Shown: in pieces, positions 29,641 through 40,419 of the stretch
Layout of the letters: each line of letters starts with the position of its first letter
Numbering within the stretch: position 1 is the first letter of the stretch
Origin: Candidatus Hermodarchaeota archaeon
GTDB lineage: Archaea; Asgardarchaeota; Hermodarchaeia; Hermodarchaeales; Hermodarchaeaceae
Length of the DNA stretch: 58,482 nt
Direction: 5' to 3'
Assembly (NCBI GenBank): GCA_016840065.1
Contig: JAEOTB010000018.1
Span: 1 to 58,482 of the forward strand
Notes under the pieces: generated by a model
Database searches by the model: none
What the model was told of the DNA's origin: nothing
What the model saw: only the letters and a program-made list of their open reading frames with translations
Position numbers and translations under genes: made by a program

Positions 29641-31047
29641 TTAGGTGCGCTTGTATCGCTTGATGCCCTTCAGACGACACACCTCGCGTACTAACATATC
29701 GAGGATGTACTCATCACTCTCAATCCCCTTCGGGGCATCGATAATCTTCCGTAATTGCAAGGGTATTCCGTCCATTCGATAAGCTGTCTGGATGCCTTCT
29801 GCCTCAATTCCAACATAAGCAGAGGGGATTACGATGTCTGAGATTTCAGTTGTTGCCGAACGCTTTGGATCAATTGTGATTAAAGGCACTTTCAGCATGT
29901 GTTTTACAGCTGCAGCTGGGAGAGAAGCAGCTGGGTCAGCGGCAACGATGAATACAGCATCGGTTCCACCCCTAGCTAGAACATCAACTGCGCTTGTCTC
30001 GCCAGGCATGTAGTAAGGAGCTCCTGTTTCTAGGCTGACTGAGAAGGGGAAACCGTAGGTCCAAGTACTGACGTGATTTGAACCATTGACATTGAAGTGA
30101 CCCCGCATAGGCATAATCACTGCCTTGGCATGATGATTGAGCTCTGCAGTGAGGTCAATTGCTTGTGTTATGTTGTGATCCTTTCCTTTGCTCTGAGTTA
30201 AGCCCAACCCGAAGAAGATTGCAACGAACTCTGCACTCTTCAGTGTTGCAACAAACTCTCGTACCTTTCGCATTGGAATGCCAGCTACTGATTCCCTTTG
30301 AATTTCTCGTCCACGAAGCATCGCACGAATTACAGCCATGAGTTCGTAATCCTCATTGGGATTGACTTGGATAAACTCTGTGACCTCATCTGAGAATCGT
30401 GTCGGTCGGACATCGATGTGATAGACCTTCCGTTCTCCTTCCTTGCGAAACATGCCTTCAATGAACTGAGAGTATCGGCGGGTATGGCGTGGGTGTGCTG
30501 CGACTGGATTGCAGCCCCAGTAGATTACTACATCAGCATAATTCTTGATTTTACCTAGGGTTGCGGTTCCGATGCCAGCGCGTTGAACTGCTTCAATTCC
30601 AGGACCATGACAAACCGATGATGTATTGTCTACAACGCCGCTACATACTTCAGCTAATTCCAGCGCCTTTACATTAGCCTCGTTTGAGGTGCTTGCAAGT
30701 CCATAAATTAGTGGGCGTCTTGCCTTGGCAAGGATTTTCGCCGCTTCTTTCACAGCCACTTCTAGTGAAACTTGACGCACCTCTGACTTGTCAGGGCCTG
30801 AGCGAAGTTCAGGTTTTAGGATACGGTGCTCATCGCGCAGTTTTAGGAACTTTGTGTGTCCAATGCGGCAAGCGTTCAACGCCTCAATGATTGTACCTTC
30901 TGGTACGCGTGGGAGGGGACCAGTAAGCGTAATCGCTACCTGTATATCATCACAAAGCGCTCCACAGAAAACACACACAACGTTTTTGACGATACGAGCA
31001 CGGGGAGTCGCGAGTATACCTGCAGTTTCTGTCGGATCAGTAGTCAT
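29641..31047 (-). CDS. fwdB: Formylmethanofuran dehydrogenase subunit B (Cys form)
   Basis: CVFCGALCDD, SVCHGP, YWGCNP, HPRH, MRGHFNV. Confidence 0.95.
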   Translation of the reverse strand: MTTDPTETAGILATPRARIVKNVVCVFCGALCDDIQVAITLTGPLPRVPEGTIIEALNACRIGHTKFLKLRDEHRILKPELRSGPDKSEVRQVSLEVAVKEAAKILAKARRPLIYGLASTSNEANVKALELAEVCSGVVDNTSSVCHGPGIEAVQRAGIGTATLGKIKNYADVVIYWGCNPVAAHPRHTRRYSQFIEGMFRKEGERKVYHIDVRPTRFSDEVTEFIQVNPNEDYELMAVIRAMLRGREIQRESVAGIPMRKVREFVATLKSAEFVAIFFGLGLTQSKGKDHNITQAIDLTAELNHHAKAVIMPMRGHFNVNGSNHVSTWTYGFPFSVSLETGAPYYMPGETSAVDVLARGGTDAVFIVAADPAASLPAAAVKHMLKVPLITIDPKRSATTEISDIVIPSAYVGIEAEGIQTAYRMDGIPLQLRKIIDAPKGIESDEYILDMLVREVCRLKGIKRYKRT

Positions 31048-31059
31048 AGCACAATTCCT

Positions 31060-31458
31060 CTATTTTGTAGTTGCTCGAAGCTCAGCAAATAGTTCTTGGA
31101 GAGTAAGCACCTGCTTGCCTGGTGCAGGACTGATTGTTGCCTTAAGCCCTTTCATTGTTGGCATACCGGTGCTGTCCGTTTCAGCACCAATAAGGAGATT
31201 GGCCCATGGACCGTATGGGATAAAGGCTATGCCAGGGCTTGGTCTGGGAGCGACAACTGCTTTTAATATGACGTTGCCATGCTCTGTTTTGACTTCCACA
31301 GTATCTCCAGCTTCTACTCCTATTTTCTCAATATCAGAAGGGTCGAGTCGAACCTGTGTTGTTGACTCGAAATAAACGTCGCTGAGCTTTCCGAGTTCAA
31401 GACCAACTCCTTGTCTTCTAGTTCGACCTGTGAGTAAAATAACTTCCAAGCTAGGCAT
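31060..31458 (-). CDS. fwdD: Formylmethanofuran dehydrogenase subunit D
   Basis: LLTGRT..QG, FIPYGPWAN, TGMPTMKG; start re-called at ATG31458. Confidence 0.93.
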   Translation of the reverse strand: MPSLEVILLTGRTRRQGVGLELGKLSDVYFESTTQVRLDPSDIEKIGVEAGDTVEVKTEHGNVILKAVVAPRPSPGIAFIPYGPWANLLIGAETDSTGMPTMKGLKATISPAPGKQVLTLQELFAELRATTK

Positions 31459-31521
31459 GCAATATACTACTCCTGATAGCATTCGTTTAGCGTCTACCTC
31501 AATAAATCTCTTGCTCAAGTA

Positions 31522-32553
31522 TTAGAGGGTTACAATCCATCCTTTTGTGGTGATAGTGCCGATAACAACCTGGTGTCGTAAAAGTTGTCCCTCTTTATCT
31601 TTCACCTCTTCTAGTATCCCGTGAACTCGTACTCTATCGCCTTGACTTGCACACCCGGCGAAAATCCCTTCGAAAGATTCAACTCGGTTGATCAATGGTA
31701 GCTTCTGGGGTCCTTTGATGATTCTTACGTCATCAATACCGAAAATTACTGGTGCAAACAAGCTTTCACTATCATCTGTGATGGTGGCCAAGAGTTCTAC
31801 AGGTTCTAGAGCAGTGTAGTACTCTTCTCCATATATGCTAGTATTTTCATCATCTGTTCTAGTGGGGTGAAGGTGGAAGGGTGTGCCGTCGATACGGCCT
31901 CTAAGCCAGTGTGGGCAGACTATCTGGTCTTTGTATTTTTCAGGAATCCCAAGAAGTTGAGCTCTCTGGCGCTGCCATCTCTTTATCGCCTTAGAGGAGT
32001 GAGGTTCCAATTCACCCTCATATATTGAATCAGTTGATTCACGAATTCTTCGAGCATAAACGTCACTAAGGACTGTCATGTTAATGTCAGAATATCGTGG
32101 ATTATGAGTTCCCAGCAGAATCGAACCAGTTACGCCAAACTTACTAGCTGGTACACCCGTTGACTCTGAGAACTGGTCTACTAGGCGGATTGTTTTTGCC
32201 TCCAAAGAATCCTTTGCTCCCTCTAGCATTTCAAGAAGCCGTTCTTCTGGAATATAATAGCGAGTAACGCGTTTTCGTGGAACCAAGGGAAGCTCAATTC
32301 CGCGCACATCGCAGAATGATAGGTAGTCAGGATGGTTCTCGCGAAGCCAGCTGGTACCAGCTTGAATTTTTGCTGCGCTGTAAAGGTGAATCATTCTCTG
32401 ATAGCGAATACCTTTTCGTTTCCATTTCCCTTCCTGCCCAGGTCGATACTTGAGGTACACAGTATACTTGTCAGGTGGATGAAGGTACCCAACCACACAG
32501 AAAATCAATCCTTCTGAGGTCTCGACGAAATCTTTGTCCTTAGGCTTTCGCAT
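31522..32553 (-). CDS. Archaeal predicted nucleotidyltransferase (COG1665-like), degenerate DxN motif
   Basis: DFVET.EGLIF.V.G..HP, GVTGSIL...SDIN, C-terminal OB-like region. Confidence 0.8.
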   Translation of the reverse strand: MRKPKDKDFVETSEGLIFCVVGYLHPPDKYTVYLKYRPGQEGKWKRKGIRYQRMIHLYSAAKIQAGTSWLRENHPDYLSFCDVRGIELPLVPRKRVTRYYIPEERLLEMLEGAKDSLEAKTIRLVDQFSESTGVPASKFGVTGSILLGTHNPRYSDINMTVLSDVYARRIRESTDSIYEGELEPHSSKAIKRWQRQRAQLLGIPEKYKDQIVCPHWLRGRIDGTPFHLHPTRTDDENTSIYGEEYYTALEPVELLATITDDSESLFAPVIFGIDDVRIIKGPQKLPLINRVESFEGIFAGCASQGDRVRVHGILEEVKDKEGQLLRHQVVIGTITTKGWIVTL

Positions 32554-33576
32554 CTACACTAACCGCTCCGGGATAAGAAGGTCTTGTGGATTACCGCCAA
32601 GTATGAACCTGGTCCACTGCTCATTCTTTGTAATCACTTCCTCTAAAGCTCCCCTGACAATGGCTATATCCCCTCTTTGGACCTGTTCGCTGAATCGACC
32701 CCTGAAGCTCACAATTTCTTTTACCCTTTTAGCACGAAGTATGCTTACTTCTCGTATTTTGTAACAGCAAGGTGTAAACAACCCTTCTGAGTGGTCTGTG
32801 ATGTGGACTCGCGCTCTGGCATATCCGATTTGTCGATAACAGCGTTCACCGTACTCTTCGTCAACCTCATCCCAATCTAAGACAGCGCGAATGAAATAGT
32901 GTCTCCCGTTGAATGTGCCATGCATTGCCTTTGCTCGGTCGATCTCTAGTGCCTCCTCAAAGGTAATGCCACTGTTCTTCCATCGCAGATTGAAAATCGG
33001 CTGATAGGTGTCTTGGGTATATTCTTTGATTCGATGTTTTTGTGTTTGATGAATCCGCTGTAAAGCTGCCTGAACTGCTAGGGCAGGATGGCGGCCATAA
33101 ACAATGAGGTCGATATCCGAGTCAGCTTCGTGTAAGGCCACCAGAATGCTTCCAGATATCCCCAGCGCAGTCATTTCGATGTCTGCTTCTTTTTGGATTA
33201 TTCTAGCAAGATTGACAGCATCTTCTTGTAGAGCGTCTCTTTTCCCTTGATTCTCGAGTTGTTCTAACACCTCAATGGGCTTGTATACTTGGCTAATTGA
33301 TGATAAGGGAATTCCTTGAAGCATTAGTCCAAATATAGGGTCTTCGTACAGGAACTGAGGATAGTTTTTACGCAGAATATCAAATCGCTCATCAATGTTG
33401 TAGACTTTTCCGTAGGTGCGCCCTGCTCGTATACGAGAACCAGTTTCAAGGGGATAATATCGTAAAAAAGCAACAACTCGGTCTAGTGGGTGGACCAATC
33501 CCTTCACATCGAAAATGAGCCCTTCCAGTGTCTCAATGAAATCACCTTCACGGGCAGTTCGATTTGACATATCCAT
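32554..33576 (-). CDS. Archaeal predicted nucleotidyltransferase (COG1665-like)
   Basis: EGDFIET.EGLIFDVKG..HP, GISGSIL...SDIDLIVYG, SFRGRF. Confidence 0.85.
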   Translation of the reverse strand: MDMSNRTAREGDFIETLEGLIFDVKGLVHPLDRVVAFLRYYPLETGSRIRAGRTYGKVYNIDERFDILRKNYPQFLYEDPIFGLMLQGIPLSSISQVYKPIEVLEQLENQGKRDALQEDAVNLARIIQKEADIEMTALGISGSILVALHEADSDIDLIVYGRHPALAVQAALQRIHQTQKHRIKEYTQDTYQPIFNLRWKNSGITFEEALEIDRAKAMHGTFNGRHYFIRAVLDWDEVDEEYGERCYRQIGYARARVHITDHSEGLFTPCCYKIREVSILRAKRVKEIVSFRGRFSEQVQRGDIAIVRGALEEVITKNEQWTRFILGGNPQDLLIPERLV

Positions 33577-33601
33577 AACCGTAAGTGAAAAATGAACTGG
33601 T

Positions 33602-35041
33602 CTATTTTAATCCCAGTGATGGTAGTAGGAACTCCTCTTCACGCCAACTCCAATAACTACCATTCCACTTCTTTACGATCCGAACCATGCTTCTTGAACC
33701 TTTGCCCTTGTATTGCTGAATCTGTATTACTTCTTGAATTCCCTTCTCTCTTTGTAGCGAGGATAGAAGATGGATAATTGCGCCTAGACATTGACTCGAA
33801 GCTTTTACTCCTATCAAGCAGCCAATATCAGAGGTGGAGGTGAAGACATATGGCATCTGTGAAGCGGCTACGATAAGTAGCTCTGCGATTTTAGGGTCGC
33901 ACCGGATGGCAAAAGTAAGGAAGACAGTCAATAAAGGTGATGCAAAAGTTATGTAAGGTAAAACGGATTTTTCTTGAAGTAGTTTGTTTTTTCTTGTAGA
34001 GACTGTAGTCCGTGGTCTCCTAATTCCAACTTTTGCGAGGCGTGTCATCAGGTTATTTGTTCGAGCTCGTCCATCAGTTGCAAGAAATATTGCTAGATAA
34101 AAGTCCAACTGATCGAACTTTCTCATCTGGGTGTTATGTAGACCTCTAGGCTTTGGTAGTATCTCCCAATTTTCTTTAACGAAATCAATCAATCCAAGTG
34201 TTGTGACATCTCCTTCTATGAGCCAGTCACCCGTTTCGAAATCAAAAGAATCAAAATTGATGGACATATAATTCGCAGTTATATCGTGTATTTGTGTTTC
34301 ATCAAAAAATACATCTTTTAACTTTGTGACCTGTCTTTGAAAAAATCGAAGTGGTCTTGTCTGGTCTGGAATCATAAATGAGGCAAAACCCCGTTGATAT
34401 GAAGCGTCAAAGACTACTGTTTTAATATATGCTGACATCTCCTCTTCGAATAAACTTTCTAGCTTGGGCGTAGCTTCTACTCTTCTTGTTTTGAAACATA
34501 CAACGAAATGCCGCAACCTGAAACGGTGCGAATCCACGAAATGAGTAAATCGAAGCCCTATTTTTTCCTCTAAATCTTTTATTTGGTTTCGCACGGTAGG
34601 TGGACTAACCTCTAACTGTTTAGCTAATTGTAGTGCTGAGTATTCAGGCTGCTTGTATAACAACGAGAGCAGAGCAATCTCTCTACCGTTTAAGGGTTCG
34701 GCGTGTAGAGGAAATAACCCATATATTATGTCCCGTCTTAGTTTTTCGTAGGATGTAATATTGAATCTAATCACAATTCGTAATCGCCTAACTATAGAGT
34801 TGTGTGTACGTTGACGGGGAATAGCAACTAGACCATTTATCCGCGGGTGTTCCTCCAAGCTAAGTTCGGCCTGGGTGAGTGGTATTCTCAGGACGCGTTT
34901 CACATAAACTGCCATGTTGTCAAGTAGGAGGACAATCTCACTCCGTTCTCTTCTTGAAGTAATACTTCTGTCAATTCTGGTCTTGAGGAGTTCGATTAGG
35001 TGCAGCGCTTCTGGTTGTGTCTTCGAATACATAATTGACAA
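33602..35041 (-). CDS. Large winged-helix (tandem Lrp/AsnC-like) transcriptional regulator, paralog A
   Basis: HTH SALQLAKQLEVSPPTVRNQIKDL, second HTH-like segment (PRTTVSTRKNKL); aligns with 39016-40419. Confidence 0.7.
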   Translation of the reverse strand: MSIMYSKTQPEALHLIELLKTRIDRSITSRRERSEIVLLLDNMAVYVKRVLRIPLTQAELSLEEHPRINGLVAIPRQRTHNSIVRRLRIVIRFNITSYEKLRRDIIYGLFPLHAEPLNGREIALLSLLYKQPEYSALQLAKQLEVSPPTVRNQIKDLEEKIGLRFTHFVDSHRFRLRHFVVCFKTRRVEATPKLESLFEEEMSAYIKTVVFDASYQRGFASFMIPDQTRPLRFFQRQVTKLKDVFFDETQIHDITANYMSINFDSFDFETGDWLIEGDVTTLGLIDFVKENWEILPKPRGLHNTQMRKFDQLDFYLAIFLATDGRARTNNLMTRLAKVGIRRPRTTVSTRKNKLLQEKSVLPYITFASPLLTVFLTFAIRCDPKIAELLIVAASQMPYVFTSTSDIGCLIGVKASSQCLGAIIHLLSSLQREKGIQEVIQIQQYKGKGSRSMVRIVKKWNGSYWSWREEEFLLPSLGLK

Positions 35042-35361
35042 AGTGAAACGTTTAAGGAAAAAAGCTTTCTTTCTGACGAAAGCTATTCAACTAATACTTA
35101 TTATTAACCTCCATAATCGAAATAAATCGCCTGTTAGCAGTTTCTAGACGAAAATAGGGCTAAACTGATTGATAAATTGCTTTTTAAGCTATATCACGGC
35201 GTTAAACGCATGAAATCTAATCCTCATATAAAGTAGTTTGTATCAAGTAATTGTGAGGATTGCTTTCCTTAAGAAAGAGGGAAGGAGACCATATTCTCTT
35301 CAATGGAGGGGGAGGCCCATTTGATTCCCAAATAATTAACGGATGATGTGAGGTGAAAAAA

Positions 35362-35403
35362 GTGAATCCACCACCATTAGATCCCAAGCCAGACCCGTGG
35401 TAA
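35362..35403 (+). CDS. Putative 13-aa Pro-rich peptide MNPPPLDPKPDPW
   Basis: GAGGTG SD plus 6 nt plus GTG, the same geometry as bona fide genes at 7034 and 35477; followed by a hairpin. Confidence 0.5.
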   Translation: MNPPPLDPKPDPW

Positions 35404-35412
35404 GCTACCACT

Positions 35413-35429
35413 CCCAAGCTTTGCTTGGG
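35413..35429 (+). terminator. Stem-loop after the peptide ORF
   Basis: CCCAAGC-TTT-GCTTGGG, perfect 7-bp stem. Confidence 0.5.
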
Positions 35430-35476
35430 CAAAAAGACAATCTAGCCTGAATGAAGATCATTTAGAGGTGATAACA

Positions 35477-35719
35477 ATGGTTGAGACACGGTTGAAAGCG
35501 TTTCATAGAGACGCGCGTATAAATGACGCAACTTTGATTGTGTTTGATGTAACAGCTCAAACAGCTGATGAAAGTCTACGGGAGTTAGGAGCAATCAGTA
35601 CGTTACTTATGGACATTGTTCAGGAGGTTTGCGGTTTCACTGGCCCTATCTCTGTTGAAAAACATGTCAATGGTGTACGTATCAGCGTGACAGTAGAGAA
35701 GTCAGAAGATTCCACCTGA
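35477..35719 (+). CDS. Hypothetical protein (80 aa)
   Basis: GAGGTG SD plus 6 nt plus ATG. Confidence 0.65.
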   Translation: MVETRLKAFHRDARINDATLIVFDVTAQTADESLRELGAISTLLMDIVQEVCGFTGPISVEKHVNGVRISVTVEKSEDST

Positions 35720-35733
35720 ATGCCTTAAAGGAT

Positions 35734-36102
35734 GTGAATAGTGTGGCATCTCGTAGAGGAAGTTCCTTGAATCAAGAAGAAGCAAGTGAAACCTCTGATT
35801 TATTGCAGCTTGCATTAGATTTTCTAGAGGGTCGACAAGTGCATTCTTTGGTTCAGCGATTGGGGGAAGTTGCTCTCAAAGATTTGTTTCGGCTCCTTGA
35901 GCGTTTAACATCCTTGGTTAAACGTAATGAACTCCGTCGCGTTCGAGAACTTCTCGTGGAATTAACAATCGTACGAGAAAACACATTACTTCAAGATAGG
36001 TCTGAATATGAAGCGGAGCTTATCAAGACAATCAAGCAATCGGGTAGACTCGGTGAATTCGTAGGCTTAATTCTTACAGGCTCCCAAAAGCTGGATGTAT
36101 AA
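35734..36102 (+). CDS. Hypothetical helical protein
   Basis: Leu-rich helical ORF in an operon with its neighbours. Confidence 0.6.
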   Translation: MNSVASRRGSSLNQEEASETSDLLQLALDFLEGRQVHSLVQRLGEVALKDLFRLLERLTSLVKRNELRRVRELLVELTIVRENTLLQDRSEYEAELIKTIKQSGRLGEFVGLILTGSQKLDV

Positions 36103-36156: not shown

Positions 36157-36525
36157 ATGGTTTCAGTGTTCATAGTTGATGACGAGGAGCTCGTACACCA
36201 AATTTACAAGGCTATCCTTGCACTAGCTGGGCATAGAGTTATTGGAGTTGCCTATAACGGGTTTGAAGCCATTGAGAAACTCAAACAGCTAAAACCACCA
36301 CCGCACATCGTCATTATGGACCATAGGATGCCGCAAATGGATGGGATCTCGGCTACTTCAGAGCTCAAAAGGGTCCTCCCTTTCTGTAAAATTCTCTTTA
36401 TTAGTGCTGACTGTAAAATGAGAACAAGTGAAGCTGGAGCTGACTTATTCTTAACTAAACCTGTGAGTCTAGAAGGGCTGCTTGATGCTGTTCACCAACT
36501 AGCTAGGGGACTAGAGTGTGCGTAA
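36157..36525 (+). CDS. Single-domain response regulator (CheY-like)
   Basis: IVDDE, VIMDHRMPQMDG, KP; close paralog of 10181-10546. Confidence 0.9.
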   Translation: MVSVFIVDDEELVHQIYKAILALAGHRVIGVAYNGFEAIEKLKQLKPPPHIVIMDHRMPQMDGISATSELKRVLPFCKILFISADCKMRTSEAGADLFLTKPVSLEGLLDAVHQLARGLECA

Positions 36526-36540
36526 GCCTCACGAAGCACG

Positions 36541-37146
36541 TCACTTCAAAGCATTGAGGAACGCTTTGATCTCTTCCCCTTCACGTATCGGGATGATTTC
36601 TTGGACTCCAGCCCGTTCAGAATCGTATTTCTGTGCAATGATGAAGCCGGTCTCTTTTTCCTCACTGGTCGAGCCCTTTCCCTGCCAGATATATATCTTG
36701 TTGAATGTATCGAGCAAGTAGACATCATCTGAAGTAAGTGAGGAGCGAGAACGTTTCACTTCATAGAAAAGACTAACATCTCCTTCGATATGAACTCGGA
36801 AAAGTTTGTAGTCCCGCTTCTTTAGCGCAACGCGCCTCAATATTCCTTCTGTATCTTGAGCTGTGACTTCTATACTCCCACCAAAGAGAGCGAGAAATTC
36901 TTTCGGCTCTTCTCCCTGATCTAAGGTAATAAGACGTGTGTGACCCCTCCGTGTCCGATCACCCATCACAGAAGTTATCGCCCCTACAAATTTCTCGTCC
37001 GGTGATGCTGACTTGCCGCACCAGAGATAAATGATGGAACCTGCATCTACTAAATAGACATCGCCCTCGGCAAAATCTTCGATGAGTTCTTCTGGCACTT
37101 TGTGTATTTGGCCCTTTGAAACATGATACTTCGTGAATTTGGTCAT
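36541..37146 (-). CDS. Two-domain gelsolin-like actin regulator (eukaryotic signature protein)
   Basis: Two repeats: GDVYLVDAG..IYLWCGKSASPDEK...QGEEP..F and DDVYLLDT...IYIWQGKGSTSEEK...EGEE...F. Confidence 0.88.
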   Translation of the reverse strand: MTKFTKYHVSKGQIHKVPEELIEDFAEGDVYLVDAGSIIYLWCGKSASPDEKFVGAITSVMGDRTRRGHTRLITLDQGEEPKEFLALFGGSIEVTAQDTEGILRRVALKKRDYKLFRVHIEGDVSLFYEVKRSRSSLTSDDVYLLDTFNKIYIWQGKGSTSEEKETGFIIAQKYDSERAGVQEIIPIREGEEIKAFLNALK

Positions 37147-37240
37147 TGTTGTCACGTCCAAGCTTCTTGCTATCGAGAAGTTTTTATATTCTTCTGATTG
37201 TGCCGCTTAACTCGTCAGACTATTAAGACATAAGCGTTGA

Positions 37241-38041
37241 TTGCCGAAGGATTTGGTTATATTGTTGCAAGCTAACTCCTCTCCAGCCTCTTTCTCAGTG
37301 ATTCCTCTCATAGGTTTGGGTTTTATCAAAGAGGGTGATAATGTTGGTGCATTGATTTGTGCAGCTTGTCGAAAGAATGAGTTTCCCTTGGTAGAAGGTG
37401 ATATTCTGGTGATTGCACAGACTATTGTGTCTAGGGCTGAGGGTGCTATTGTAGATTTAGCTTCAGTTAGACCCTCTCGCCGGGCTAAGAGGCTTGCATC
37501 AAAACTACGTAAACGTCCCGAACTTGTGGAGGTCATACTCCAAGCATCAAAGCGAGTTGTTCGGGCTGAGCAGGGTCACTTGATTGTGGAAACCCCTCAT
37601 GGATTCGTCTGTGCAAACGCCGGTGTTGACTCTTCCAATGTGCATCGCCGAAACCACGTAACACTACTACCTGAAGATCCTGACAGCTCAGCTAGACAGA
37701 TACGAAAAACAGTGAAGGAGGATTTCGGTGTTGATGTTGCAATAATAATTTCAGATACTCACGGTCGCCCTTTCCGGAAAGGCGCAATTAACGTGGCAAT
37801 TGGTACATCAGGAATTGCACCACTGAAGCTTTTCGTTGGTCAACCAGACCTCTTTGGCTATACCCTTCGCTCAACATCGGTGGCTATAGCAGACGAGTTG
37901 GCTTCAGCAGCAGAATTAGTGATGGGAGAAGCGGATGAAGGAATCCCGGTTGTTATCATCCGAGGCTACCAATATGAAAGAGCAGAAAGATCAGCGCAGG
38001 ACTTGGTTCGTGATGCTGATAAAGACATCTTCCGTCGGTGA
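37241..38041 (+). CDS. cofE: Coenzyme F420-0:L-glutamate ligase
   Basis: IVSRAEG, CANAGVDSSN, LLPEDPD, ISDTHGRPFR, ADELASAA. Confidence 0.93.
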   Translation: MPKDLVILLQANSSPASFSVIPLIGLGFIKEGDNVGALICAACRKNEFPLVEGDILVIAQTIVSRAEGAIVDLASVRPSRRAKRLASKLRKRPELVEVILQASKRVVRAEQGHLIVETPHGFVCANAGVDSSNVHRRNHVTLLPEDPDSSARQIRKTVKEDFGVDVAIIISDTHGRPFRKGAINVAIGTSGIAPLKLFVGQPDLFGYTLRSTSVAIADELASAAELVMGEADEGIPVVIIRGYQYERAERSAQDLVRDADKDIFRR

Positions 38042-38958
38042 CAGACATGCCAACCACAGATACTAAACAAATCCGCAAAGTGGGAGTTGCCTCAGCAGAA
38101 CCTGAAGGATGGGAAACTAGCCGGTTGGTTTCTGATATCCGAGGTAGAGGAGTGGAATGTATTGTTTTCAATGTCTCTGAGAGTGTTGTCCGTGTTGGCG
38201 ATGCCAAACCTTCTGCTCAGTATAAGAAACACGACCTTACTACGCTAGATGGGATCCTTACACGCGCGGTCCCAGGAGGCTCTCTAGAGCAGGTCATTCT
38301 TCGAATGGATCTACTCCATTGTTTAGAGCGCCTGGGAATTCCCTTCATGAACCGACCAAGCGCTATAGAGAAGGCCGTGGACAAGTACTATACTCTAAGG
38401 CTGCTGGACATGGCTGGAATCCCAGTCCCTCGTACTGTTGTAACACAATATGCAAGAGACGCGCTTCGCGCCTTCCGCCGGTTCAAGGATGTGGTCGTAA
38501 AGCCCCTCTTTGGTTCAGGTGGAGTAGGTATGACCCGTTTGGATGACCACGAAATTGCCCGCCGTGTATTCCGTGCATTAGAAGCAAGTAATTATGTGAT
38601 GTATGTCCAAGAATACTTAGAACATGGGCATCGGGATATCCGAGTATTTGTTGTTGGCGGTGAGGCTATAGCCGCAATGTATAGGGTTGGCTCAGACTGG
38701 AAAACTACAATCAGACATGGGGCTCAACCTGAACCTTGTCGCCTTACCTCCGAGCTTGAGAACCTCGCAATTCGGTGTGCGGATGTCATTGGTCTCGAGT
38801 ACACTGGTGTCGACATCCTCCAGACGCGGCGTGGGCTCGTTGTTACTGAGGTAAATAGTAGTAGTGGGTGGCAAGGACTTCAACAGGTTACAGATTTTAA
38901 TATCGCCTCCCGCATCGTTGATAGGTTTTTCCAGGTAATACATGAGTCTCAACGATAG
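38038..38958 (+). CDS. RimK-family ATP-grasp glutamate ligase (MptN/CofF-like)
   Basis: PGGSLEQV, VDKYYT, KPLFGSGG, DIRVFVVG, GVDI, EVNS. Confidence 0.88.
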   Translation: MTDMPTTDTKQIRKVGVASAEPEGWETSRLVSDIRGRGVECIVFNVSESVVRVGDAKPSAQYKKHDLTTLDGILTRAVPGGSLEQVILRMDLLHCLERLGIPFMNRPSAIEKAVDKYYTLRLLDMAGIPVPRTVVTQYARDALRAFRRFKDVVVKPLFGSGGVGMTRLDDHEIARRVFRALEASNYVMYVQEYLEHGHRDIRVFVVGGEAIAAMYRVGSDWKTTIRHGAQPEPCRLTSELENLAIRCADVIGLEYTGVDILQTRRGLVVTEVNSSSGWQGLQQVTDFNIASRIVDRFFQVIHESQR

Positions 38959-39015: not shown

Positions 39016-40419
39016 TTAAGAATTAAAGTCGTTTTCTTGAAGCATCCAGCGTTGACGGCTGGCATCCCATCGCTCAGCCGCATGGGGCATCATAGTAGTA
39101 CCTCGGGTTAATGTTAGTCGAAGAATATTAACTTCTGCTTCTAACTCACTACTAATTGCGCGAATCAACTGTCGGAGGAGTGCAGCACTGCGTGCAGGCA
39201 TTTGCAGGCCAAGGCTTGCTCCGTATTCTGATGGACTGATAAGAGTATTTGGAAGCATGGCTGGTAGTCGTCTAACAATATCTCGAACTTCTGGTGGGCA
39301 TTTAACATCCAATAACACGTTTTCTTGGAAATCTGGTATTCGATAGTAGGGCGTAGAAAAAAACACACCCTCCTTTCTGAGTCGCCTTTCGCGTGCCCAA
39401 ACGGTCTTTTTCGCCAGCGAAACACCAAACTGATTCAGCAGCTTGTGCCTGAGGTCCGCATCTCGGGGATATGGCAAGGAGAAAGCTGTTTGTGCAATAA
39501 TAAAATCTGCCCTGTCAAACCGAATAGCATTCCCATATTCAATACCTCGTGGTGAGGGTATTGCTCTGATGTTTTCCCTTGTGAAGCGAAGCAATGCTTC
39601 TGCAAGGATTTCTGTCTCAAACATCCACCGCCTTGTGGAAAAGTCGTATCCTTCAAATGAAATCGCTTGAAATATCCCATTCCGCTGAATGACAAAACAC
39701 TCCTCAAAGAACTCATCCTTAAGCGCCTTTATGTGCTGATCGAACATTCGGCGTCCTTTAGGTTGGTCTGGGACAAGATAGGACATGATTCCCCTTTTAT
39801 AATCTGAATCAAAGTTAATCAGGCGAAGAAACAAAGGCCTTTTCTGGAGAATCTCTTCATCAAAACGCTTCGAATCACCAATTGATTTAGTGCGAAACAA
39901 AACTGCCTGCTGGACGAGTTTGAATTTCTGGGGATCACTATGATTAACAATAGTGAAAGAGCAGTTGTTTCTGAGGTCGTGAATCGCATTTCTGATATGC
40001 CATATTGTTGTTGACAACCGATTTGCCAGTTGGTACAATCGTTGTTGAGGATTTCTATACAATTCCATCAATATTCGCATATGCAGAGGCTTCAGAATTA
40101 GTGTCGTACTAACCAAGGGTGTAGACACTATTGTGTCAATAATTTCTCGAGCATCACCCAATCTGTAACGGTCAATCATTAGAAGAGTTGTGTGCAAGAT
40201 ATTTGCAGCTTCTTCTCCTTCTCGTCGATGATAGTGGGCAAAATCTGGGTGTGCTGGGTACACTTGCTCATGCTCAGTTATTTCCATCCCTCTTGCCCTT
40301 TTAATAAAAAGCACCACATTCGTGAGGAATTGTTCCAAATTCTTTGTGTCTTCAGGGATTACTCTTGAGACTATCCTCTGAAGCAGCTGAGCGAGTGGTA
40401 TTTCTGCTTGAACCCCCAT
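39016..40419 (-). CDS. Large winged-helix (tandem Lrp/AsnC-like) transcriptional regulator, paralog B
   Basis: LYQLANRLSTT..IRNAIHDL; shares FD..Y.RG, PDQ, LKD.FF, P.PRG, FD..DF and a C-terminal W....W with paralog A. Confidence 0.7.
   Translation of the reverse strand: MGVQAEIPLAQLLQRIVSRVIPEDTKNLEQFLTNVVLFIKRARGMEITEHEQVYPAHPDFAHYHRREGEEAANILHTTLLMIDRYRLGDAREIIDTIVSTPLVSTTLILKPLHMRILMELYRNPQQRLYQLANRLSTTIWHIRNAIHDLRNNCSFTIVNHSDPQKFKLVQQAVLFRTKSIGDSKRFDEEILQKRPLFLRLINFDSDYKRGIMSYLVPDQPKGRRMFDQHIKALKDEFFEECFVIQRNGIFQAISFEGYDFSTRRWMFETEILAEALLRFTRENIRAIPSPRGIEYGNAIRFDRADFIIAQTAFSLPYPRDADLRHKLLNQFGVSLAKKTVWARERRLRKEGVFFSTPYYRIPDFQENVLLDVKCPPEVRDIVRRLPAMLPNTLISPSEYGASLGLQMPARSAALLRQLIRAISSELEAEVNILRLTLTRGTTMMPHAAERWDASRQRWMLQENDFNS

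Follow-up and report, generated by a model that had tools for sequence, protein, structure and literature searches.

Can a reading frame of 13 codons, lying between two divergently oriented genes of an Asgard archaeon, be a gene, and if it is, what counts for the cell, the peptide or the act of translating it? The question is raised by a stretch of 58,482 nucleotides from a Candidatus Hermodarchaeota archaeon (contig JAEOTB010000018.1; the window in what follows), in which a short open reading frame (ORF), here called the micro-ORF, is found between the gene of a large regulator with two predicted Lrp/AsnC modules (double-Lrp) and a small orphan gene, g83, that is followed by a second one, g122. 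It had been proposed (the original prediction) that the micro-ORF encodes a peptide that serves the divergent regulator as ligand or leader, in the layout of Rgg/SHP-type quorum sensing, and controls the hypothetical genes and the CheY-like gene downstream. Here, we describe the conservation of the micro-ORF within its order and in other Asgard families. Judged by the pattern of sequence conservation, it is a real micro-gene that is selected as a coding frame. As to its role, we tentatively favour a cis-acting leader ORF whose proline codons would gate the g83-g122 operon, like MgtL/MgtP or the PPW upstream frames of eukaryotes. The elements of the locus that carry this argument are:

35362..35403, plus strand: micro-ORF, 13 codons MNPPPLDPKPDPW, GTG start at 35362, stop TAA
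35350..35355, plus strand: Shine-Dalgarno (SD) sequence GAGGTG of the micro-ORF, 6-nt spacer to the start codon
35413..35429, plus strand: hairpin CCCAAGC-TTT-GCTTGGG, perfect 7 bp, beginning 9 nt past the micro-ORF stop
33602..35032 (ATG) or 35041 (TTG), minus strand: regulator gene, 476 or 479 aa
35477..35719, plus strand: g83, 80-aa orphan alpha/beta protein, ATG at 35477, own SD at 35465-35470
35734..36102, plus strand: g122, helical orphan protein, second gene of the operon

Conservation of the micro-ORF within the order

Close relatives were metagenome-assembled genomes (MAGs) labelled Hermodarchaeota or Promethearchaeota, which bears out the Asgard origin of the window. The order comprises 19 genomes, which all encode the regulator, and after addition of metagenome and JGI contigs 25 distinct orthologous intergenic regions were at hand; they come from the genus of the window (five loci including the window), a second genus and a third lineage. 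The arrangement of the regulator gene opposite g83-g122 is syntenic wherever the contigs permit a view, and the closer relatives P0004 and P0005 have contigs with the same gene order. The original prediction had been staked on a conserved small ORF in homologous loci, and all 25 hold one: the micro-ORF is found at the same relative place in 25/25 loci, with a conserved start codon that lies ~250-380 nt from the divergent regulator gene. Its length is 10-14 codons, with one ORF of 19 (standard deviation 1.7), whereas the other two frames read from the same start run for 0-46 codons (standard deviation 8-12). The other four micro-ORFs of the window's genus encode MAPRIPPKPEPW, MDPRLPPQPDPA, MDPRPPPTPGPL and a 19-codon form starting MNPPPIPPTPEPW; examples from the second genus are MEPHATNPFPF, MNPYRSDAWPY, MSPGRDVTYPM and MDSPYGSRPDPL, and one from the third lineage is MVPQPRNPFPD.

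The SD, the GTG, the micro-ORF, the 7-bp hairpin, an 8-bp inverted repeat and a second tiny ORF had all been listed before, and all are present where they had been placed; the SD geometry equals, as claimed, that of a real gene, namely the GAGGTG-N6-ATG of g83. However, the window has 14 instances of GAGGTG followed by a start codon, of which no more than about half head long ORFs, so the SD by itself says little in favour of the micro-ORF. What can be added is that GAGGTGA, then 4-6 nt, then ATG is kept in all five loci of the window's genus.

The way in which the ORF changes is more telling. Over nine sister pairs, the ratio of non-synonymous to synonymous changes (pN/pS) was 0.59 in frame versus 2.4 and 1.8 in the other frames; in the revised set of nine pairs, the in-frame synonymous excess taken alone was marginal (binomial p 0.07). 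Serine was retained through switches of codon family (AGC/TCC and TCT/AGC). A proline present in either member of a pair was retained in 31 of 34 cases; other codons were identical in 33 of 64. Shared proline codons had undergone 10 synonymous and 0 non-synonymous changes, and all four synonymous proline codons are in use; for the non-proline codons, pN/pS between sister species was ~0.9. Near-constant prolines occupy codon 3, or in a few cases codon 4, and in most peptides the next-to-last place; in peptides that end in -IV or -VT the latter proline is third from last. A run of the type P-x-P or [DE]-P stands ahead of the stop. By nucleotide, no part of the leader varies more than the ORF segment, whose flanks are invariant in the second genus. 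A start, a frame, a length and proline codons that are conserved within the most variable segment of the leader argue that the ORF is selected as a coding frame, and we infer from this that it is translated.

Three other frames did not hold up as conserved elements. An antisense ORF of 71 aa (35217-35432) has no Pfam match, and neither its position nor its frame is conserved. The second tiny ORF (MEGEAHLIPK) is absent or different in four loci (L002, L038, L003 and L072). An extension of the micro-ORF upstream into the invariant leader of the second genus was rejected, since the frame relation differs between loci.

The trio in other Asgard families

The double-Lrp family was found in 39 of the 400 Asgard genomes searched. 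Among 20 loci of other families, seven hold SD-led, proline-rich micro-ORFs, eight in all, as compared with 0.37 expected from the rate in the window's own genome, and a relaxed filter gave five further candidates in families f5, f12 and f6. Each cross-family micro-ORF has a double-Lrp-like gene diverging from it on one side and, directly 3' of it, a gene for a protein of 66-91 aa. In f8, MYPQDPFPV is separated by 16 nt from a homologue of g83 (hhalign 86%, E 5e-6). In f12, the stop of the micro-ORF and the start of the small gene overlap (ATGA), and in f5 MRDDADPIDPTPF precedes the gene of a 75-aa protein by ~165 nt; both small proteins are g83-like by eye. In f6, peptides ending in P-D-P-x-P-[FWY] precede an 83-aa orphan and then a gene of the major facilitator superfamily (MFS), mostly at a distance of 31-40 nt from the small gene (~350 nt in L098), and a profile comparison of the 83-aa protein with g83 detected no homology. 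The f6 micro-ORFs face a divergent double-Lrp paralogue, and the double-Lrp gene (475-489 aa) is next; in two f6 loci the micro-gene is present as tandem, near-identical copies that have an SD each. Within the order, the distance from the micro-ORF to g83 is 48-104 nt.

Thus, the trio of double-Lrp regulator, proline-rich micro-ORF and small protein is present in f1, f5, f6, f8 and f12; as it is found in four families beyond the order, it is an Asgard-wide module. An ending of the type P-[DE]-P-x-P-aromatic is kept across the families.

Promoter, hairpins and other elements of the leader

The gap between the regulator gene and g83 is ~430-445 bp long and has a G+C fraction of 0.34-0.41, as compared with ~0.43 in its flanks. 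Apart from the micro-ORF and its hairpin, the gap and the region beyond contain:

35225..35233, plus strand: TATA-like box CATATAAAG, putative promoter of the micro-ORF transcript, predicted transcription start ~35255-35260
35219-35226 and 35254-35261: 8-bp inverted repeat AATCCTCA / TGAGGATT, bracketing the TATA-like box
35303-35335: second tiny ORF MEGEAHLIPK, 10 codons
35066..35080: motif TTTCTTTCTGACGAA, adjoining the regulator start, with a similar copy at 35141-35154
36157..36525, plus strand: CheY-like receiver domain protein (Pfam Response_reg, E 9e-22)

A box of the type C(A/T)T(A/T)TAAAG is present at the relative place of the TATA-like box in loci of all three lineages. The 8-bp dyad is partly kept in the nearest relative (L038) and not beyond, and ~0.3 such repeats are expected at that spacing; its significance is doubtful. 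A hairpin begins 0-14 nt past the stop of the micro-ORF in 23 of the 25 loci; at least five unrelated stem sequences form it, and the mean z score is -1.33. In the window, a second copy of the left arm, CCCAAGC, lies inside the ORF (35383-35389) and permits an alternative pairing. There is no T-run 3' of the micro-ORF in the window, and no terminator between micro-ORF and g83 there. A scan of the gap against Rfam gave one sub-threshold chance match and none above threshold.

In the loci L004-L018 of the second genus (for example L004:1046-1251, minus strand), the first 21 nt of the predicted transcript, GATTCCAGCAAACACACTCGC, are almost invariant, as is a stretch before the SD of g83, TTTTTCCCAGTTGTGTT. 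Within them GGGAAAAA could pair with UUUUUCCC, and UCCA with the SD, but these pairings show no covariation.

The downstream genes

g83 is the constant downstream partner of the micro-ORF, and its synteny was seen in every locus of the order. Without exception, the micro-ORF shares its strand with the g83-like gene and lies directly 5' of it. The AlphaFold2 model of g83 (predicted local distance difference test, pLDDT, 72) consists of a helix, two strands, a long helix and two strands; a Foldseek search with it gave weak matches only (Bet3/Trs31 of TRAPP, E 0.04, MecA and H-NOX), none of them convincing. Pfam and NCBIfam searches with g83 and g122, and a comparison of g122 with PDB sequences, gave nothing convincing either. 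In the closest genome (L002:1120-1151, minus strand) the position homologous to the ATG of the window's g83 reads ATA, and the sole in-frame start nearby is a GTG within the SD; a non-canonical or shifted start is possible there.

g122 is conserved in the order and was found in 19 of the 400 Asgard genomes searched, all of this family. One in-frame TGA interrupts the g122 orthologue of genome G001 (L072:901-1236). Genomes of the second genus (L073, L076 and L081) have a second g122 paralogue in a different operon, downstream of a ~220-aa ArsR-like HTH protein and adjoining a radical-SAM-like gene with a CxxxCxxC motif.

As to the proposed control of the genes downstream, the micro-ORF is on the same strand as the hypothetical genes and just ahead of them, but the CheY-like gene does not belong to the module throughout: among the loci searched, it was seen in the window and in L002 only. 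In the window, the CheY-like gene is followed by the gene of a two-repeat gelsolin-domain protein (36541-37161, minus strand), which is the neighbour on the contig of a relative as well, and then, at 37241-38958, by the genes of a CofE-like F420 gamma-glutamyl ligase and a RimK-like ATP-grasp protein.

The double-Lrp regulator and its operon

That the regulator carries two winged helix-turn-helix (wHTH) domains and RAM-like domains is borne out by an AlphaFold2 model built from 30 homologues (pLDDT 86) and by Foldseek. In the model, a helical N-terminus (1-105) is followed by a first wHTH (116-166) with a RAM-like domain (173-258) and a second wHTH (308-362) with a RAM-like domain (370-439). 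By sequence, Pfam recognized the first wHTH alone (HTH_24, HTH_11 and MarR above cut-off at aa 118-160), and AsnC_trans_reg was not detected. The best Foldseek match was NirDL (4ch7; E 1e-7, TM 0.58 on the target), with many Lrp/AsnC structures next; those of ~145 residues (2dbb, 2cg4, 8q90, 2e1c and others) matched with E 1e-6 to 1e-2. NirDL/AhbAB is likewise a two-module fusion, and each half of the regulator has the same make-up of a wHTH and a beta-alpha-beta-beta-alpha-beta RAM fold. However, NirDL is an enzyme, siroheme decarboxylase, and is only 11% identical to the regulator. From the single Lrp/AsnC module of ~150 aa the regulator departs in having two modules in tandem, and from both NirDL and the Lrp/AsnC regulators by its additional helical N-terminus of 105 aa. 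No TPR domain was found in the AlphaFold2 model or by Foldseek, and Pfam gave HTH families only. According to the model, the regulator is a fusion of two Lrp/AsnC modules and not a TPR receptor.

In the window, the regulator gene heads a tight operon (29641-35032, minus strand) that continues with genes for proteins of 340 and 343 aa, fwdD and fwdB; the order is the same on the contigs of relatives. The 340-aa and 343-aa genes are paralogues without Pfam match, and no counterpart of them was detectable in the distant loci. fwdD and fwdB encode subunits of a tungsten/molybdenum formylmethanofuran dehydrogenase, and since the regulator heads the operon with them, it may control the fwd genes. 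The motif TTTCTTTCTGACGAA is kept in all three lineages, and in the second genus an inverted pair of it flanks the TATA-like box of the regulator; it is probably an operator or promoter element of the regulator gene, likely autoregulatory. A paralogous regulator (39016-40419) was considered as a second instance of the arrangement and rejected, as no comparable micro-ORF lies upstream of it.

A second proline-rich micro-gene in the same genome

A genome-wide scan for SD-led, proline-rich short ORFs revealed, with a wider filter, a second family, MDPRPGPLPPIPV, at G000 contig C41:7270-7311 (the same as L116:4271-4312, and identical at L117:84-125). This micro-gene is monocistronic: it has a TATA-like box and an SD of its own, and a strong hairpin with a T-run after it. 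On one side it diverges from the gene of a 527-aa GH3-family adenylating enzyme, and on the other it converges with that of a RimK-like ATP-grasp ligase. Conservation extends throughout the order, with MDPR[ST]DGPI[WL]PC and variants in the second genus. Between the genomes G000 and G002, all 13 of 13 residues are identical and the changes are synonymous only, whereas the two genomes agree in only about half of the micro-ORF studied here. A similar match of the scan (C16) lies inside a gene and is due to chance, and the notion that the GH3 protein is a hidden double-Lrp was rejected. GH3-family genes are expanded in this genus: G000 has 12 matches (contigs C43, C48, C15 and C122), several of them in tandem on C43, and other genomes of the genus have 8-10, as compared with 0-2, mostly one, per genome of the second genus.

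Discussion

How could a conserved micro-gene of this kind act? In the reading that we tentatively favour, a TATA-like promoter divergent from the double-Lrp gene would drive an mRNA of which the micro-ORF is the first frame and which presumably carries g83 and g122 as well. The proline codons (PPP, then P-K-P-D-P-W directly before the stop) would be translated slowly and in dependence on aIF5A, so that the dwell of the ribosome on the micro-ORF and its stop codon would report the proline/aIF5A status of translation. The hairpin, 9 nt past the stop, is within reach of a terminating ribosome, and occupancy there could set the expression of g83-g122, be it by refolding of the RNA, by reinitiation or by premature termination, with a direction of the effect that we can only surmise. 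On top of the presumed control of the promoter by the regulator, the micro-ORF would add a gate at the level of translation.

We favour a proline-codon leader because selection is confined to the prolines, as a sensor of proline codons predicts, because the micro-ORF is strictly 5' of a g83-like gene, overlaps included, because the hairpin sits where a terminating ribosome can reach it, and because there are precedents in MgtL/MgtP and the PPW frames. Of the two roles that had been proposed for the peptide, ligand or leader, the latter is thus the better fit: selection that bears almost only on proline is expected of a leader ORF rather than of a sequence-specific ligand. The contrast with the fully identical MDPRPGPLPPIPV also counts in its favour, as does the deoxyhypusine synthase encoded in the genome. 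A search for the aIF5A family (PF01287) gave no match in the 84%-complete MAG, but the Haloferax control was missed too, so that absence is not implied.

MgtL, which has prolines at codons 3, 5, 7 and 9, senses Pro-tRNA and EF-P, and mgtP has three consecutive proline codons (PMC6460261). Like MgtL (18 codons) and MgtP in the leaders of Salmonella mgtA and mgtCBR, the micro-ORF is a short frame in the 5' leader of the genes that it would regulate, with conserved prolines including one at codon 3, an alternating P-x-P-x-P run, other residues that vary and an RNA structure adjoining. That the speed of the ribosome on proline codons (Pro-tRNA, EF-P) sets downstream expression, as it does there, can be carried over only by analogy. 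There is no sequence homology, the one system is bacterial and the other archaeal, the Rho/attenuator read-out has no described archaeal equivalent, and the prolines of the micro-ORF cluster at the stop codon. In the upstream frame of AZIN1, a PPW motif pauses ribosomes and mediates control by eIF5A and polyamines (PMC8705083, a review). Its Pro-Pro/Pro-Trp end resembles P-[DE]-P-W, which is found in the window and in two of its four relatives within the genus, directly before the stop in the window and in L002, and eIF5A/aIF5A is common to eukaryotes and archaea. However, the Trp is variable here, with A, L, F, Y, D, G and others in its place, and initiation is SD-led rather than by scanning. 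In archaea, ribosome profiling of Methanosarcina lists small ORFs in 5'-UTRs as candidate upstream ORFs (uORFs) only, and the literature searches that we made turned up no published description of such an Asgard element.

Several observations weigh against a proline-codon leader. Translation, co-transcription and stalling, on which it depends, are each presumed from sequence. The SD-like element of the second genus, GGA(T/A)GTGA, is imperfect and stands at a distance of 11 nt from the start codon ATG. L002 and L038 have a weak hairpin or none; the space after the micro-ORF is too short for a hairpin in f8, f12 and most f6 loci; and the alternative, mutually exclusive pairing is limited to the window and not seen in relatives. 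A long-range helix between the 5' leader and the SD of g83, suggested by RNAalifold for the second genus, was rejected: its pairs are invariant and without covariation, and it is absent from the third lineage and the window's genus. A conserved T5 run together with the conserved stretch before g83 in the second genus could be a terminator plus a separate promoter. The tandem copies in f6 look more like a matter of product dosage, and the ending kept across families hints at a possible role of the peptide chain itself. With prolines at position 3 and in the penultimate place, a free peptide would also be shielded from exopeptidases. Finally, we know of no demonstration of leader-peptide attenuation in archaea.

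The strongest competitor, which we consider only somewhat less probable, is a free, protease-resistant, proline-capped intracellular peptide of 10-14 aa that would bind the g83-like protein, the RAM-type pocket of the regulator or both, in a feedback loop. The recurrence of the trio in all five families links the micro-ORF to the double-Lrp, tandem near-identical copies in f6 are in line with a peptide product, tight spacing or overlap with the small gene is typical of partner proteins, and the P-[DE]-P-x-P-aromatic ending is common across families; a monocistronic MDPRPGPLPPIPV with its terminator in the same genome makes free micropeptides plausible in the lineage. On the other hand, the non-proline residues are near-neutral between sister species and the last residue may be W, F, Y, A, L, D, G, V or M, a pattern that fits specific binding poorly unless the receptor changes in step. 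The known ligands of RAM domains are amino acids and not peptides. Moreover, the linkage of the micro-ORF with the regulator is no tighter than that with the g83-like gene, and in f6 another gene stands between the micro-ORF and the double-Lrp of 475-489 aa. The more specific claim that the micropeptide is the unprocessed ribosomal ligand of the double-Lrp regulator or of its g83-like partner, making up a peptide-receptor switch in at least five Asgard families, is one that we regard as unlikely.

Much less probable still are two further explanations. The peptide could be the precursor or substrate of modifying enzymes, for instance of C-terminal ligation by an ATP-grasp or adenylating enzyme in a microcin-C-like or carrier-peptide-like fashion. 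A RimK-like ATP-grasp gene is indeed found 2.6 kb downstream (38038-38958), MDPRPGPLPPIPV is flanked by the genes of a GH3 adenylating enzyme and of another RimK-like ligase, and the f6 module includes an MFS gene; but no modifying enzyme adjoins the micro-ORF throughout the families, the residue at the C-terminus varies, and the 340-aa and 343-aa genes are missing from the distant loci as far as detectable. An equally faint chance is that the ORF is incidental, carried along by a conserved non-coding RNA leader or DNA operator. The strongly conserved non-coding flanks in the second genus, including the invariant 21-nt 5' leader and the stretch before g83, would fit, but the frame is kept, with its start, length and proline codons, in the very segment that varies most; antisense ORFs are not conserved, and the ORF and the invariant leader differ from locus to locus in their relative frame, so this leader is not part of the ORF.

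The least probable of all is quorum sensing of the Rgg/SHP or another RRNPP type, with an exported peptide and a receptor in the cytoplasm, for although a very short ORF adjoins and diverges from a transcription factor gene, as in Rgg/SHP and PlcR/PapR, and an MFS transporter gene follows the small protein gene in f6, the receptor has two tandem Lrp/AsnC modules in place of the TPR peptide-binding domain, the peptides of 10-14 aa are hydrophilic, rich in Pro, Asp and Asn and devoid of an export signal or a hydrophobic or processing segment where RRNPP peptides are exported and usually processed, the module of this order has no transporter, neither exporter nor importer of the Opp or PptAB type, and RRNPP systems are found in Firmicutes and their phages, the present module in Asgard archaea. 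With a receptor of Lrp/AsnC fold and a peptide devoid of an export signal, the Rgg/SHP analogy of the original prediction has to be given up.

Gene callers discard frames of 10-14 codons, and the element is therefore invisible in Asgard annotations. If the micro-ORF is a leader sensitive to proline and aIF5A, it would be an archaeal counterpart of the MgtL/MgtP sensors and of the eIF5A-dependent upstream frames of eukaryotes, and, with the Asgard archaea as the closest lineage to the eukaryotes, ideas on how uORF-type control of translation arose would become testable. If instead the peptide is the effector, fused Lrp/AsnC modules would be a new class of receptor for ribosomal peptides; a circuit with the peptide as ligand would be, as far as is known, the first ribosomal peptide signalling circuit described in archaea, with a receptor of the RAM type rather than the TPR type. 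On either reading, a double-Lrp regulator, a micro-gene and a small orphan protein form a conserved three-part module, which in this organism lies beside the genes of formylmethanofuran dehydrogenase.

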